From an uncultured virus (IMG/VR IMGVR_UViG_3300042560_002469) (taxonomy: Duplodnaviria; Heunggongvirae; Uroviricota; Caudoviricetes), in the IMG/VR virus record IMGVR_UViG_3300042560_002469: a stretch of 20,000 bases of DNA. One strand, given 5' to 3'. Shown piece by piece: positions 1-15,205 of this stretch (its first letter is position 1; each line of letters starts with the position of its first letter). The notes below the pieces were generated by a model. That model did not search any database, was not told the DNA's origin, and was given only the letters and a program-made list of their open reading frames with translations. The translations under genes were made by a program, and so were the position numbers.

Positions 1-1335
1 AATGGCAACAGAAATCAGCCGCGCAAGCGCATCGACTTGACGATCAAGGGTTTTATCAAATTTGCCAAGGACAAGCCAGACGCAAGACTATGGCTCAATA
101 TGGGCAAAAAAGACATGGGATGGGACTTGGTGCCTCTATTCAAGCGCGTGGCACGAGACGAGGGTTACGACGCAACTGGCAAGCTCATTCTTACCAGTCC
201 GCATTTTTCAACCAGCAACTGCCTTCCCATTGAACAATTGAACAAGGTGTACAACGCCGTCGACATTGGCGTGAACACTTGCATTGGCGAAGGGTGGGGC
301 TTGGTCAATACAGAACATGCCGCCACGGGCGTGGCTCAATTGGTTCCAGACCATACAAGCCTTAAGGAAATCTTTCACGGTGTTCCGCGCATTGCTTGTC
401 ATGGTTCTGAAACAGACAGGAATTATGGACTCGAGAGGCCATTGCCAGAGCCTGATAGCATGGCCGAGCTCTTGACCGGCTATTACAACAATCGTATGGC
501 CCTTAAACAGGCCGGCGATTGGTGTTATCAGCGCGTACATGAACAAGAGCTCTCATGGTCTTCCATCCAAAAGCAAATGCTGAACATCGTCAAGGAACTG
601 CTTGTCACGGCAAAGAAAAGCGCTGCTAAGGGCTTTGCAAAAAAGCCTAAGGGCCAGGGGACGACGAGCTTCCCTGGCCAACAAACTCAATGGATTGATT
701 TCAGCGAAGGTAGCAATGTCTTCTGTATCAGCATTGAAGGAGATGAACGACGCAAGAAGTTTGCCGATCAAATGGGCAAAATTGAACAAAGATTTAATTG
801 GTGGGCGGCGATCGATGGTCGGCAACTGTCTCGCAAGGAGCTAGAAGCGCAAAGTTCAATACCAATCGACTGGGAAATTGACGACGACAAAGACACCTTG
901 AAGCGCACTGGCGAGGCAGCACTAATACTTTCTTCCATTGCTCTTTGGAAGCATGCCTTTGACCAAGGCATGGATCATCTTGTGATTCTCGAGGACGATA
1001 CTGAAGTGATGCGACCGCTGGTTCTTGAAGTGCCAGAAGATGCGGATCTTGTGTTTTTTAATGATCGCAGCATGCGAAACAAGGATGGCCTCACCTGGGG
1101 CTATGTATGTGGCACGGATGGTTACTTGATTACCAGGCAAGGCTTATCTAAGCTCCTCAAGGTTTTTTCGCGGGCTTACTTGCCACTGGACCTGCAAATG
1201 ATTGCCAATACAGAAAGCATGCGAGATTGCGAACATCATCTATTCGCCTATCGAAAAGAAGATTTGCCCTTGTTAAAAAGCTACACACTCCCTCCCATCG
1301 CCTTCCATAACAACTCTCCCTCACGCATCCGATGA
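1..1335 (+). CDS. Two-domain glycosyltransferase, 5'-truncated: GT4/GT-B C-terminal half fused to a GT25-like (LPS-type) domain
   Basis: Frame is open from base 1 (NGNRNQPRKRIDLTIKGF...). GT4 motifs RNQPRKRID and YNAVDIGVNTCIGEGWGLVNTEHAATG are present. After a Lys/Gly/Pro linker (~600-710) come GT25 motifs VFCISI..DERR, AIDG, GEAALILS..ALW, LVILEDD, GTDGYLITRQG and PLD. Confidence 0.85.
   Translation, partial: NGNRNQPRKRIDLTIKGFIKFAKDKPDARLWLNMGKKDMGWDLVPLFKRVARDEGYDATGKLILTSPHFSTSNCLPIEQLNKVYNAVDIGVNTCIGEGWGLVNTEHAATGVAQLVPDHTSLKEIFHGVPRIACHGSETDRNYGLERPLPEPDSMAELLTGYYNNRMALKQAGDWCYQRVHEQELSWSSIQKQMLNIVKELLVTAKKSAAKGFAKKPKGQGTTSFPGQQTQWIDFSEGSNVFCISIEGDERRKKFADQMGKIEQRFNWWAAIDGRQLSRKELEAQSSIPIDWEIDDDKDTLKRTGEAALILSSIALWKHAFDQGMDHLVILEDDTEVMRPLVLEVPEDADLVFFNDRSMRNKDGLTWGYVCGTDGYLITRQGLSKLLKVFSRAYLPLDLQMIANTESMRDCEHHLFAYRKEDLPLLKSYTLPPIAFHNNSPSRIR
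639..679 (+). other. Candidate -1 programmed ribosomal frameshift signal (A_AAA_AAG plus 3' hairpin), truncating type
   Basis: In-frame GCA AAA AAG at 637-645, 6-nt spacer, then stem GGCCAGGGGA (652-661) / TTCCCTGGCC (670-679). The -1 frame reads AAA AAA GCC TAA, with the stop at 648-650. Confidence 0.65.
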
Positions 1336-8894: not shown

Positions 8895-9148
8895 AGATTG
8901 ATTATTTGCATAGCGCCGACAATTTGGTTCACGCCATCAATATCAGCATTGATGGTGCCGCAATGGAAGTGGGCATCCTTTGTCTTATTTCCCATAGACA
9001 GGCGACCATTAGAATTGCGAACGACTACCACTCGTTCCTCGTTGAAATACCTCCTCAGTTTCGCTCTAGTTTTGAGCGAGTGAAAGTGTTCAACGCTCTT
9101 CTCAACATTCTCGATCATGAGCAAATACAGTTTTCTGCTGGAGACTAA
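8891..9148 (+). CDS. Hypothetical protein (85 aa)
   Basis: ATGA-coupled ORF filling the gap between tail genes; overlaps the next gene by 32 bp. Confidence 0.55.
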   Translation: MKIDYLHSADNLVHAINISIDGAAMEVGILCLISHRQATIRIANDYHSFLVEIPPQFRSSFERVKVFNALLNILDHEQIQFSAGD

Positions 9149-9665
9149 GGAAGAAGGTTTTTGCGAGCTTCTGCCTGGCTTGCGCCTGAAAAAGTTTGGG
9201 GGATGGCTTGTTGCTGAGGCCATTGAGCAAGAGGAGATCGGCAAGCTTCAAAGCCAGGCGACGATCAAAGCTGTTCAATTGGCAAAAAGAATTGCCACTT
9301 CAAAGGGCATCAACTTGGACGAAGCTTTTGCCCTGCTCCAAGGCGGAGGTGGCACAATCAGCGAGGCAGAGCTTCTCTCCGAATTTACGGAAGAAACCCT
9401 GAGCATGCTGACAAGTGGCTCTTCTGTCGAAGCTACCAACGCGCGAATGGTCACTGCCTTTATTCGCTCTCGCGGACAAGGGTTGATCGATGGGGAATGG
9501 CGTGATATTGGAGATTGGAGCACAGAGGACACCAACGCGCTTCCACGTCGCATTATTGCCAAGGTGGTTGAATTTATCAGCTCTGAGCAGGAATCAGAAA
9601 TGAAGGAGGCCGGAGAAGCAAAAAAAGCGTCGAAGAGGAATTCCCCTCCATCGCAGAACAGTTAG
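9117..9665 (+). CDS. Tail assembly chaperone (lambda gpG analogue)
   Basis: 182-aa acidic ORF two genes upstream of the tape measure, with an in-frame slippery A_AAA_AAA near its 3' end. Confidence 0.75.
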   Translation: MSKYSFLLETKEEGFCELLPGLRLKKFGGWLVAEAIEQEEIGKLQSQATIKAVQLAKRIATSKGINLDEAFALLQGGGGTISEAELLSEFTEETLSMLTSGSSVEATNARMVTAFIRSRGQGLIDGEWRDIGDWSTEDTNALPRRIIAKVVEFISSEQESEMKEAGEAKKASKRNSPPSQNS

Positions 9666-10093
9666 AAGCCCAGGCCAGAAAGTTTCTGGCCTCAATGACA
9701 AATTGGAATGAGCTGTATTTTCGGCTTGTGTCTTCGGACTTTAGGGATGATCGCTGGAGCTCGCAAAATTTTGGCAGACAAAGACTAAAAGATGTTCAGG
9801 CTGCATTGAAATATCTGGAGAAGCACGACATAGCGAAGTACAACATTCAAAGCATTGCGACGGCAAAGTTTGGCGCAATGGCGTCCACCATGATGGGCGG
9901 CAAGAAGGGTTCGATTAAGGCCGACTACTTTTTACCGTTCGACGTTAAGAAGATTCAAAAAGAGGAGAGCGTCACTGGTGAAAGCATGGCCGTACTACAA
10001 CGATTGATGAAGCAGAGACGAATGGATGGAAGGGTGATTGCGCTGCTTGCTGACGAGCTCAAGACATTCAGCAGCCGTAACCAGGACCAATGA
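9626..10093 (+). CDS. Tail assembly chaperone frameshift extension (gpT analogue; G-T fusion ~325 aa)
   Basis: The -1 frame from the slippery site is open (SVEEEFPSIAEQLEAQARKFLAS) and continues into the 9695-10093 ORF, directly before the tape measure gene. Confidence 0.75.
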   Translation, partial: SVEEEFPSIAEQLEAQARKFLASMTNWNELYFRLVSSDFRDDRWSSQNFGRQRLKDVQAALKYLEKHDIAKYNIQSIATAKFGAMASTMMGGKKGSIKADYFLPFDVKKIQKEESVTGESMAVLQRLMKQRRMDGRVIALLADELKTFSSRNQDQ

Positions 10094-13100: not shown

Positions 13101-15205
13101 TTTTGTTGTTAAATACTGCGTTTACCTTGCTAGGTGGGCGCGTTCTTGTTGGGTTAATTGCGTCAATTAGCACTGCAACCGCAAGATTTATCGCTCTTAA
13201 TGTCTCTGTCGCCTCTTTGCAGCGAACTAGCGCCGTCGCTAACTCCACGCTGGCCGGAACTCAGTTGCAAATGGCACTTCTAACTCGCAGCGCGACCACT
13301 GCTGTTGGTCCTTTGACTGCGGTTCGGGCTGCACTGGCTGGCATCGCAGCCTTTGGAGTGATTAGTGTCGCTGTAGCAATAAGTATTAGTGGACTACAGG
13401 AGACACTTGCCGCTAATGCAGAGTTGCAAAAACTTCGTGGACGCGCTGCTTCTGGGGGTGCCACGGCAATGCTGCAAGGCGCAACAAAAGAAGAGGTTGC
13501 GAGACAGCAAGGAGTTGCAAGAAAAGTCTTGTCCAACGAGAAGCAAAAATTGCAACAGTTAAATAAGCCTTCGGCTCGACTGATGCAACAACTTAACGTT
13601 GGTGGGGTCTTGAGGCCCTTTGGCGTTGAAAGCGTTGTAGGCGCAGAAGAGAAGCGTCGCTTAGCAGCGGCAAGAATGGCTTCTGCTCGGGACGTTCTTT
13701 CTGTCAGTCAATCTGGACGCCGATCTGAGGTGCCAGTTGTACCCAGTGCAGCGCTGATGCCAGTTGATTTACAGGGTGGCGATGAAAAGAAAAAAAAGAA
13801 AGGAGCGGACAAGGCCGCGAGGGAAGCCGAGCGACTCAGAGAGCAAATTGCAAAACAAGCCCAAGCCGCTTCCGATGCTTTATTCGCGGAACAGCAGCGA
13901 CTCTTGGTTCTTCAGCAAACCAATCCAATAGCCAAAGCATTCGCTGAGTATTCCAGTAAGGAAGTAGCAATTCAGCGTGAGTTGAACAAAGCACTGCAAG
14001 AGGCAAAAGGCGCGAAAGAGAAAGAGGATATCAAAGAAGCATCGCGTCTTCAAAGCATCACCAATTCTTTGGAGCTTGAACAGGCAATTAAAGATGTAAG
14101 GGAAGAGGCTCTTAAGCCTGTTGAGGATTTATTAAAGAGTCAGAGAGAGCAATTGCAATACGAGCAAGATGTTGAAAAACTCATGGCAGAGGGCATGCTG
14201 CCAGAAAGGGCCAAGCAGGTGGCCGAAGTACGCAAACTTGTGCGAGCACAACTAGAGAGCCTGGATCTTTCCATTGCCAATGCGAAGGCTGCCATTGCAG
14301 ATGCTGAAGCCAGAAAAGTTTCTGCCGATCAAGTCGATCGACTTAGAAAAGCGCTGGCAGACCTTGAAGCTGCACGAGGAGGAATCACGGCAAAAGGAGC
14401 GACTGCTGAAGCTGGCGTTCCTATTGACAAGGAAAAGAAAAAAAGTCCGATGGAATTTATTAAAGAAGCATCTGTTGGCGCACAGGAAGAATTGGCAAAG
14501 TTATCCAATTGGGGCTATCAAGTGGCAGAAGGGGCCAAAGCCATTGGCTCCGCCTTTGGCCAAGCATTCAAGGATATTGCCAGTGGCTCCAAAACTACGC
14601 AAGAGGCACTGGCTTCCATGTTCCAGAGTATTGCCGATCATTTCTTTGACATGGCAGCGCAAATCATTTCGCAAATGCTGATCATGTACACACTCAAGTT
14701 GGTCCTTGGACTTTTTGGTGGCGGCGTTAGTGGTGGTTTCTCAAGTAATGCTGCAGGATTTGGAGGTTCGTTTGACGCAGGAATTCCAGGGCTGTCGGGC
14801 GCTCCTAATTACAGCGGGGCTTTCAAATTTGCCGAGGGAGGATTTGTAATGGGTCCAACTCAGGCCCTTATTGGCGAGGGTGGTGAATCGGAATATGTCA
14901 TTCCCGCTAGCAAGATGCGTTCGGCCATGAATCGCTATGCTTCAGGCGCTCGTGGCTCTGCAGTGATCCCTGGCAATGGAGAGAGTGATGGAGGGCCGAC
15001 AAGCGGCCTGGCAGCAATGAATGCCTCTTCCATCGACGTGCGCTACACCGTGGAACGCATCAACTCCGTTGATTACGTCACCGCCGACCAGTTCCGCGCT
15101 GGCATGGCACAAGCCGCACAACAAGGTGCCACGCAAGGCGAACAGCGCACCCTGCGCCGTCTGCAGCAGTCCCGCGCCACCCGTAGCCGCCTCGGCATGA
15201 ACTGA
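10124..15205 (+). CDS. Tail tape measure protein (~1693 aa)
   Basis: Very long Ala/Gly-rich ORF. It contains a tape-measure domain (FTKLYAS...AFAQMASKGQVMSEELKGQLGDVLPGA), an LGIASPS motif, a coiled coil and a lambda-H-like C-terminal FAEGG...LIGEGGESEYVIP. Confidence 0.93.
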   Translation: MAVQDADLKLRVSLDLAFFRQQLSGLGQAAAGYNLPINVRFDRRAIQNELNALGANIRRRRYDLEVNTNLSAEILKAQKLAEALRNLPSGGGTGGTSGVVQKGFTQEALKQLKPDQIKRLYRAAADAGFLAFQEGIANNKQKIAKDLSQVGQDSIAGLLNGLQSGDEKIRAAAADLGIGLIRAIKDTLGIASPSKETGKLGKFAAEGFEKGFITSMVKAERQMAQAIRSAVIGALREGLSNLPGLGGALVGFERQLATSVQLAVRKAMREGISASIVPGLKGGAVGALGGAATGAAMGGAKALGGAATGGLAKLGAGGIFGLAGQMGRLAIGDTSGLTAFIQETVAHIVHTAMSSGGQGALIGAAAVGGVAGAAGFARGATGSLVLQAATAIRNRILAALLAVSSGSMNNVVQVMVRDITTSLFRGIQRQLKAATASLPPIDWPAMRPSRGGVSTAGTMALPAGRQFAGLPGSAFASQKRLVGDILNAGLKEALRGAANAFVDAVRDGLNSAVRAVNVRDLGTAGRPMLGGTRVAGFLPQGVGRAPAGYSSGRLGRDGESRAEMFARREREARVRSALRGVDIMGGGGGRGAAPYSYAYRSARPQSAIVPYAAPGAIVPTPSRVGGGGAIPPGGGGGRGGGAGGGDFFGAIGKVSLPGAGLINELGSEFAFATKQVLLFGQAYKLLAFLQDFPGQVGNAVGQLQSFRNTLNNISPSAKEAALSNQFILDIVDRYNVPLQSARDGFTKLYASMAPAGFNGEQIRGLFTGISQAAATFGMSADKVDRVNYAFAQMASKGQVMSEELKGQLGDVLPGAMAIFAEAAGFKGPDAIQKFSAALEDGVYKGKAMNVLLNNVGVVMSKEFGPGAEGAARTFQGAINRMQNSLRLLYESFEPVAIGFLNSVVVPLTSGIKTITDGFNAFFTGTQAKTAGGMAFAKELENLKPSLEGIGNNLKELVPSFQMFGSVLLNAAKVLTAIAGNPITGFLLKIYANVLLLNTAFTLLGGRVLVGLIASISTATARFIALNVSVASLQRTSAVANSTLAGTQLQMALLTRSATTAVGPLTAVRAALAGIAAFGVISVAVAISISGLQETLAANAELQKLRGRAASGGATAMLQGATKEEVARQQGVARKVLSNEKQKLQQLNKPSARLMQQLNVGGVLRPFGVESVVGAEEKRRLAAARMASARDVLSVSQSGRRSEVPVVPSAALMPVDLQGGDEKKKKKGADKAAREAERLREQIAKQAQAASDALFAEQQRLLVLQQTNPIAKAFAEYSSKEVAIQRELNKALQEAKGAKEKEDIKEASRLQSITNSLELEQAIKDVREEALKPVEDLLKSQREQLQYEQDVEKLMAEGMLPERAKQVAEVRKLVRAQLESLDLSIANAKAAIADAEARKVSADQVDRLRKALADLEAARGGITAKGATAEAGVPIDKEKKKSPMEFIKEASVGAQEELAKLSNWGYQVAEGAKAIGSAFGQAFKDIASGSKTTQEALASMFQSIADHFFDMAAQIISQMLIMYTLKLVLGLFGGGVSGGFSSNAAGFGGSFDAGIPGLSGAPNYSGAFKFAEGGFVMGPTQALIGEGGESEYVIPASKMRSAMNRYASGARGSAVIPGNGESDGGPTSGLAAMNASSIDVRYTVERINSVDYVTADQFRAGMAQAAQQGATQGEQRTLRRLQQSRATRSRLGMN

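Follow-up and report, generated by a model that had tools for sequence, protein, structure and literature searches.

The 20,000-nucleotide stretch analysed here (the window; IMG/VR record IMGVR_UViG_3300042560_002469) is a piece of a tailed-phage genome whose major capsid protein is 86% identical to its counterpart in Synechococcus phage S-CBS4; the phage is an S-CBS4-like cyanosiphophage from lake water, and near-identical DNA is present in 20 lake or freshwater metagenome runs, with no RNA run among the runs listed. The window opens inside a gene that fuses two glycosyltransferase domains, one of the GT-B fold (GT4-like) and one of family GT25, and the comparison of homologous genes makes it likely that the junction between the two harbors a conserved programmed −1 ribosomal frameshift cassette. 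The full-length gene, as read from the near-identical contigs L003 and L004, comprises 631 codons, and its stop codon lies at positions 1333–1335. The features of the locus are the following:

1..1335, plus strand: fused GT-B (GT4-like)–GT25 gene, 3′ two-thirds; open reading frame (ORF) in frame 1, with the 5′ end cut by the window start.

1..636, plus strand: GT-B (GT4-like) domain, C-terminal half, closing with the conserved KGF motif (628–636); sub-threshold in Pfam, homologous to PDB 3oy2.

639..645, plus strand: slippery heptamer A_AAA_AAG in the X_XXY_YYZ phase, that is GCA (637–639), AAA (640–642), AAG (643–645).

646..651, plus strand: spacer CCTAAG, 6 nucleotides, read from the sequence.

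648..650, plus strand: −1-frame stop codon TAA, which would end the short product in ...KGFAKKA; a TGA occupies the same place in the relatives L009 and L011.

652..679, plus strand: candidate stimulatory hairpin, with the 5′ arm at 652–661, a loop of 8 nucleotides at 662–669, and the 3′ arm at 670–679.

715..1194, plus strand: GT25 (Glyco_transf_25) domain; Pfam PF01755, E 2e-14, 54.3 bits against a cut-off of 24.

The two halves of the protein were assigned by profile comparison. The GT25 domain covers residues 239–398 of the window translation and lies above the Pfam gathering cut-off; the same profile gives 48–62 bits in the relatives described below, and weak matches (E 2.5e-4 to 2e-3) connect this half with solved GT25 proteins and with procollagen galactosyltransferase 1. 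No relative of the GT25 half was retrieved from 50,697 phage records at E ≤ 1e-8, nor from a bacterial and archaeal genome collection probed with two peptide patterns. The N-terminal part of the protein, about 400 residues, matches the PHROG glycosyltransferase family phrog_2170 (E 6e-33) and, over its full length, is homologous to B736L, a viral glycosyltransferase of solved structure (PDB 3oy2; E 1e-14, residues 4–387 to 4–390), which we take to have a GT-B fold and to belong to GT4. The phrog_2170 match ends at residue 200 of the window translation and the GT25 domain begins at residue 239, so that the frameshift site falls between the domains. The initial annotation had placed it exactly between a GT4 and a GT25 domain: the position and the GT25 assignment stand, whereas the "GT4" label stays below the Pfam gathering cut-offs, at about 20 bits versus 26–28 (17.7–22 versus 26.4–28.5 for Glycos_transf_1, Glyco_trans_1_4, and Glyco_transf_4). 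The AlphaFold model of the fused protein, built on a six-row alignment, was poor (mean pLDDT 48, pTM 0.37); in it, residues 394–415 form a coil that leads from the final helix of GT-B to the opening strand of GT25. The model was not used as support.

The elements of the cassette proved to be as the initial annotation had described them, with the heptamer in phase (GCA AAA AAG, 637–645), a spacer of 6 nucleotides, a 10-bp stem, and a −1-frame stop one codon past the heptamer. The stem pairs GGCCAGGGGA (652–661) with TTCCCTGGCC (670–679) through eight Watson–Crick pairs plus G660–U671 and A661–U670. After a slip of one base backwards, the codons read would be GCC (645–647) and TAA (648–650), giving ...KGFAKKA and the stop. 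The region 646–690 folds at −20.0 kcal/mol (z −3.68), with none of 200 shuffles folding as well, and the longer segment 630–700 at −28.9 kcal/mol (z −3.27). The control A-run sites of the window (after positions 106, 6574, 9620, 13792, and 14439) have no comparable hairpin downstream, with −5.7 to −11.5 kcal/mol and z from −1.58 to +1.18. The Rfam covariance models did not retrieve any family match (cmscan of 500–800, E ≤ 10), the only two hits being on the minus strand and at chance level.

Two further elements were considered and set aside. An upstream stem at 630–648, formed in the 630–700 fold by the inverted repeat GGGCTTT/AAAGCCT with the heptamer in its loop, is not conserved in L009. 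A Shine–Dalgarno-like stimulator (AAGGG/GAGGG) 6 nucleotides upstream of the heptamer also occurs in relatives lacking the cassette and cannot be judged, because the same letters encode the conserved Lys/Glu-Gly of the KGF motif.

A scan with the window protein retrieved 159 relatives, 80 of which were kept; the family as a whole presents three layouts. The GT-B enzyme stands alone in 71 of the 80 (L012–L082), and 70 of these proteins end in ...KGFG(T/A)PA(K/R)I(V/G/A/N), with the stop seven residues past the same GF motif (e.g., ...KGFGTPAKIV), the remaining one running off its contig. Like S-CBS4 gp014/gp015, these stand-alone relatives share with the window gene a homologous GT-B enzyme and its location, between the portal gene and the head-protease gene, but the transferase encoded next starts from an ATG of its own and is of another family (GT2 in S-CBS4; PF04488, a DXD sugar-binding region, in L012). 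They possess neither GT25 nor heptamer: none of the 71 relatives without GT25 carries the heptamer at this site.

The GT25-bearing relatives for which DNA was available form nine lineages, four fused and five split. In the fused layout a single frame runs through both domains, as in the window clade (L003–L008), in L009 (81% identical), in L011 (68%), and in L096–98 (43% in the GT25 half). In the split layout, whose lineages were retrieved with the GT25 half (L090; L091/L095; L092; L093/L094/L101; L100/L117), the GT4 frame stops 0–3 codons past the heptamer, and the −1 frame is open for 228–229 codons of GT25. The difference in frame between the layouts comes from indels in the loop region, the distance from the heptamer to the TTC of the FP motif being 24 nucleotides in the window versus 20 or 26 in the split lineages. 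The short products end in GFGKK, GFGKKQ, or GFGKKQKG in the split lineages versus GFAKKA, GFAKKD, or GFGKKA in the fused ones, in both cases near the natural C-terminus of the stand-alone GT4. Thus, a GT4-only protein is potentially encoded in every layout of the family, with C-termini that are nearly alike, the −1 frame providing it in the fused genes. Of the 20 matches to the pattern GGNTTYGSAAAAAAGNNNNAGGG, 14 belong to this gene family and 6 are unrelated; one of the latter, L123, resembles the cassette but is made up of the last part of an HNH endonuclease gene and, after it, the ribosome-binding site and start ATG of the gene that follows.

Two observations on the mobility of the GT25 module can be added. 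In six proteins (P0005 and P0021–P0025) the fusion partner of this module is not a GT4 but an FkbM-family methyltransferase (463 amino acids), and the FPG motif at the N-terminus of the module is kept; the module therefore moves between partners. Moreover, three stand-alone GT4 proteins of 407 amino acids (P0014, P0015, and P0018) share a 90%-identity cluster with the 631-residue fused protein P0004 and differ from it only in the last 25 residues or so, pointing to a recombination boundary close to the KGF motif.

Since the layouts differ by frame and the site contains a run of A residues, an assembly or sequencing artefact has to be weighed: A-runs are error-prone, and homopolymer errors could create apparent frames. 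Two sequences, L010 and P0026 (see below), do resemble indel-bearing variants. Nevertheless, the run is A6 in every lineage, and a given split layout is seen again in contigs of other samples (L091 and L095; L093, L094, and L101; L100 and L117). Furthermore, four additional lake metagenomes have no indel across 300–1300 and no substitution between 520 and 710. Sequencing error is excluded as the explanation by the constancy of A6, the recurrence of the split layouts, and the indel-free metagenomes, and we assign it a negligible probability.

Stronger evidence for a shift at the cassette comes from the split lineages. Their GT25 segments are coding, with Pfam E values of 1e-15 to 1e-16 and a ratio of nonsynonymous to synonymous substitution rates (dN/dS) of 0.06–0.22, similar to the 0.04–0.07 of the fused genes, and are thus under purifying selection. 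In L090, L092, L093, and L100 the GT25 frame contains no ATG, GTG, or TTG from the upstream stop to a point between codons +21 and +67, and a start at these later codons would remove conserved N-terminal residues; L091/L095 have an upstream ATG at codon −27, without an obvious ribosome-binding site. Four of the five split lineages being without a usable GT25 start codon, a −1 shift is needed for expression, and the simplest route to GT25 in these phages would be a −1 shift at the heptamer yielding a GT4–GT25 fusion. Public gene calls place the start of the split GT25 at inconsistent internal positions (19 clusters, 8 of them inspected). The two layouts imply at least one polarity switch in the family. 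Only this minimum is claimed, because the tree of the GT25 domain leaves a trichotomy and does not give the direction of the switch.

The alignment of homologous genes had been set beforehand, in the initial annotation, as the test of the cassette; rather than synonymous disruption of heptamer and stem together with absence of a −1 stop, it revealed the heptamer in all nine GT25-bearing lineages and a covarying stem. NNA AAA AAG is in phase with the GT4 frame in each of the nine, among which synonymous sites are saturated (synonymous divergence, dS, 1.2–2.9). Given the amino acids and the codon usage of each gene, the probability of the exact heptamer is 0.017–0.083 per lineage; these values cannot simply be multiplied, because the lineages share ancestry. 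A hairpin begins 2–8 nucleotides past the heptamer in all nine, with z values of −3.3 to −5.8 in eight of them. In the window-type stem, represented by eight sequences, all 80 cells are paired; both bases have changed in three of the ten pairs (A-U to G-C, C-G to U-A, and G-C to A-U), two pairs vary on one side, and five are invariant. When the partner arm was slid by 1–3 columns, pairing fell to 35–69%, and only 3 of 500 shuffles reached the observed values. L090, L093, and L100 have a different stem of 12 bp, which keeps the core AGGGRA/UUCCCU helix and is extended inward instead of outward; it shows a C-G to U-A swap through two synonymous changes, a set of three sequences having no statistical power. 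The window clade, L009, and L011 share the position of the −1 stop, which is TAA in the first and TGA in the other two; its T, which is a four-fold degenerate third position, is held while the first two codon positions vary (CCT, ACT, CTT).

These data bear on the possibility that there is no recoding at all, the heptamer simply encoding Lys-Lys in a basic linker and the hairpin being a by-product of the G-Q-G...F-P-G codons. The linker is in fact rich in lysine (AKKSAAKGFAKKPKG), FPG is conserved at the protein level, and in-phase heptamers do arise by chance. Such a reading would nevertheless leave unexplained the five lineages in which an intact GT25, under purifying selection, occupies the −1 frame and has no start codon, as described above, the synonymous positions that are invariant in nine lineages out of nine, the compensatory pairs, including those made of synonymous changes, and the fact that not one of the 71 relatives lacking GT25 has the heptamer. 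It is already strongly disfavoured, and we regard it as extremely improbable.

The same alignment also speaks to the nature of the slip. Slippage of the RNA polymerase, adding or dropping an A in the A6 run, would yield the same two proteins from different mRNAs, and transcriptional slippage of this kind is used by Thermus dnaX. However, A6 is shorter than the runs usual for polymerase slippage, the last base of the site is always G, giving the A_AAA_AAG phase, and a conserved, covarying hairpin downstream of the run fits a ribosomal stimulator. While the polymerase is on the A-run the hairpin is still untranscribed, which argues for ribosomal rather than transcriptional slippage; the latter appears very unlikely.

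A number of observations weigh against a programmed shift in the window gene and must be set beside the evidence above. The heptamer alone is not rare: AAAAAAG occurs seven times in the window (six on the plus strand and one on the minus strand), and a second in-phase A_AAA_AAG lies at 13792–13798 inside the tape-measure gene, where the downstream region has no notable structure (z −0.16) and the heptamer probably arose by chance. In L096 the hairpin is weak (z −1.48). The position of the −1 stop is common to only three fused lineages, L096–98 having theirs six codons farther on. In a scan of synonymous sites, the window over the cassette was at the top of the gene but tied (0.79 and 0.79 versus a gene mean of 0.50). 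The FPG motif encoded by the 3′ arm is conserved even in the methyltransferase–GT25 fusion P0005, so the stem is partly constrained by the protein. In L010, one of the eight window-clade contigs retrieved, 7 nucleotides are deleted just before the heptamer, so that GT25 is no longer in frame; in L010:2380–2460 the GT4 frame continues for about 75 out-of-frame codons past the deletion with the GT25 frame intact, and this contig may result from misassembly or represent a defective variant. In the singleton protein P0026 a GT4 tail continues into GT25 without a change of frame, and the residues that span the site are different. The slipperiness of AAG is decided by the Lys-tRNA set of the host, high slipperiness being in keeping with a single tRNA-Lys(UUU). 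Lastly, the fused frame of the window lineage needs no shift, and the short product could be a by-product.

On balance, a conserved frameshift cassette remains in our opinion the most adequate reading, and the following mechanism can be proposed for the window gene. Ribosomes staying in the 0 frame would make the GT4–GT25 enzyme of 631 amino acids. The hairpin would pause the ribosome with two Lys tRNAs on AAA AAG, allowing a slip back by one base; the slipped ribosomes would read GCC and stop at TAA, releasing a GT4-only enzyme of about 403 amino acids that ends in ...KGFAKKA and closely resembles the stand-alone GT4 of the relatives. The cassette would thus set the ratio of a one-step to a two-step enzyme. 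Slippage in the host is here deduced from comparative data: a signal that drives shifting in the split relatives should also act in the window gene, and the truncated product is expected.

Whether the short product has been selected for is a separate matter. The last of the points listed above is the core of an alternative in which the signal is functional in the split relatives and an indel placed the GT25 of the window lineage in frame, leaving a relic whose GT4-only product is tolerated. It is in keeping with at least one polarity switch of unsettled direction and with a synonymous-constraint peak that is only tied for the top. Against it, the heptamer, the stem (A-U to G-C in L011; G-U to A-U in L009 and L011), and the −1 stop (TAA to TGA) persist across dS values of 1.3–2.9, the base of the −1 stop remains T at a four-fold degenerate position while its codon changes, and every other layout of the family also makes a GT4-only protein. 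We consider a relic unlikely. The persistence of heptamer and stem across the fused lineages, the retention of the −1 stop in place in the window clade, L009, and L011, and the fact that every layout yields a GT4-only protein with nearly the same C-terminus suggest instead that the short product may be selected for, and not merely tolerated, in the window lineage. In the initial annotation, one gene was proposed to make both a GT4-only and a GT4–GT25 enzyme; conservation in nine of nine lineages, covariation, and the split relatives support the coding of the two products, while a selected role for the shorter one is what we infer from the pattern just described.

A more general and quite tentative idea, which we rate as possible but doubtful, is that the cassette represents a portable "frameshift joint" tethering GT25 to a GT-B enzyme, whose polarity was flipped at least once with heptamer and hairpin kept, and which would give a GT4 to GT4–GT25 ratio of about 1:1 in both layouts. 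A flip swaps the shifted and the unshifted products, and would therefore be near-neutral only if shifting were about 50%. Shifting at E. coli dnaX is reported to be near 50%. If this idea is true, the two forms perhaps cooperate to assemble a glycan of two sugars, on targets in the virion or at the host surface.

The closest known parallel is E. coli dnaX, in which a 3′ stem-loop follows the heptamer past a short spacer, the −1 stop comes one codon past the heptamer, and the shifted product is truncated; the window gene likewise combines a short spacer with a stem-loop on the 3′ side, and its −1 frame reaches a stop after one codon. It differs in that the gene is unrelated, encoding a phage glycosyltransferase, and in that its relatives carry the cassette in the opposite polarity. 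The window heptamer is identical to the A_AAA_AAG of the dnaX tau/gamma site, which, according to the review PMC5009743, is the most shift-prone heptamer of those tested in E. coli. According to the same review, a truncating −1 shift in E. coli copA yields the free N-terminal domain CopA(Z) plus the full-length protein (PMC5009743). The likeness to the window gene is that a free domain and a full multi-domain protein come from one gene. copA is, however, a cellular and not a phage gene, its shift site and stimulator differ, and we know of no copA relatives with reversed polarity.

The split relatives (L090–L095 and L100) share instead the layout of the phage tail chaperones G/GT and of OrfA/OrfAB in the IS3 family, where the 0 frame stops just past the heptamer and the −1 frame adds a domain. 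The window gene has the inverse polarity, and the proteins are enzymes rather than chaperones or transposases. As regards G/GT, the window contains a candidate site of its own: GCA AAA AAA at 9618–9626 is in phase 13 codons before the stop of the gene at 9117..9665, the second gene ahead of the tape-measure gene, and the −1 frame (9626–10093) runs open into the ORF 9695..10093. The region that follows this heptamer folds weakly (−8.6 kcal/mol, z −1.58), and the G/GT reading of this site is based on position only, because neither ORF has a PHROG match.

In agreement with the initial annotation, which knew of no frameshift-controlled phage glycosyltransferase, the literature search did not retrieve any paper on frameshifting in such a gene. 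The string "glycosyl" is absent from the main texts of PMC5009743 (its first 300,000 characters), bioRxiv 10.1101/2025.10.02.679949, and PMC10885494.

On its 3′ side the glycosyltransferase gene is followed by a radical-SAM/SPASM gene, a DUF2213 head-protease-like gene, and then structural genes and the tape-measure gene. The radical-SAM/SPASM gene (1332–2267) shares four nucleotides (ATGA) with the glycosyltransferase stop, and S-CBS4 carries a SAM-dependent methyltransferase at the matching place; the radical-SAM/SPASM gene may belong to the same modification pathway as the glycosyltransferase. Speculatively, the position of the latter in the head-morphogenesis module hints at virion proteins as the target of glycosylation.

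The mechanism is a known one and the case is a new instance of it, the unusual feature being that one gene family contains both polarities of the same cassette. In tailed phages, annotated programmed frameshifts are almost confined to the tail-chaperone genes, whereas here the shift would act on a pair of enzymes. For annotation, this implies that public records mis-annotate the split form, entering a GT4 gene and, beside it, a GT25 gene clipped at its N-terminus, and that for the fused form they list one protein and overlook the short product. The family represents a natural experiment, in which the same heptamer and hairpin would truncate the protein in the window gene and fuse it in the relatives, so that the cost and benefit of the product ratio become testable. 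Moreover, the finding points to glycosylation genes within the head-morphogenesis module of freshwater cyanophages.

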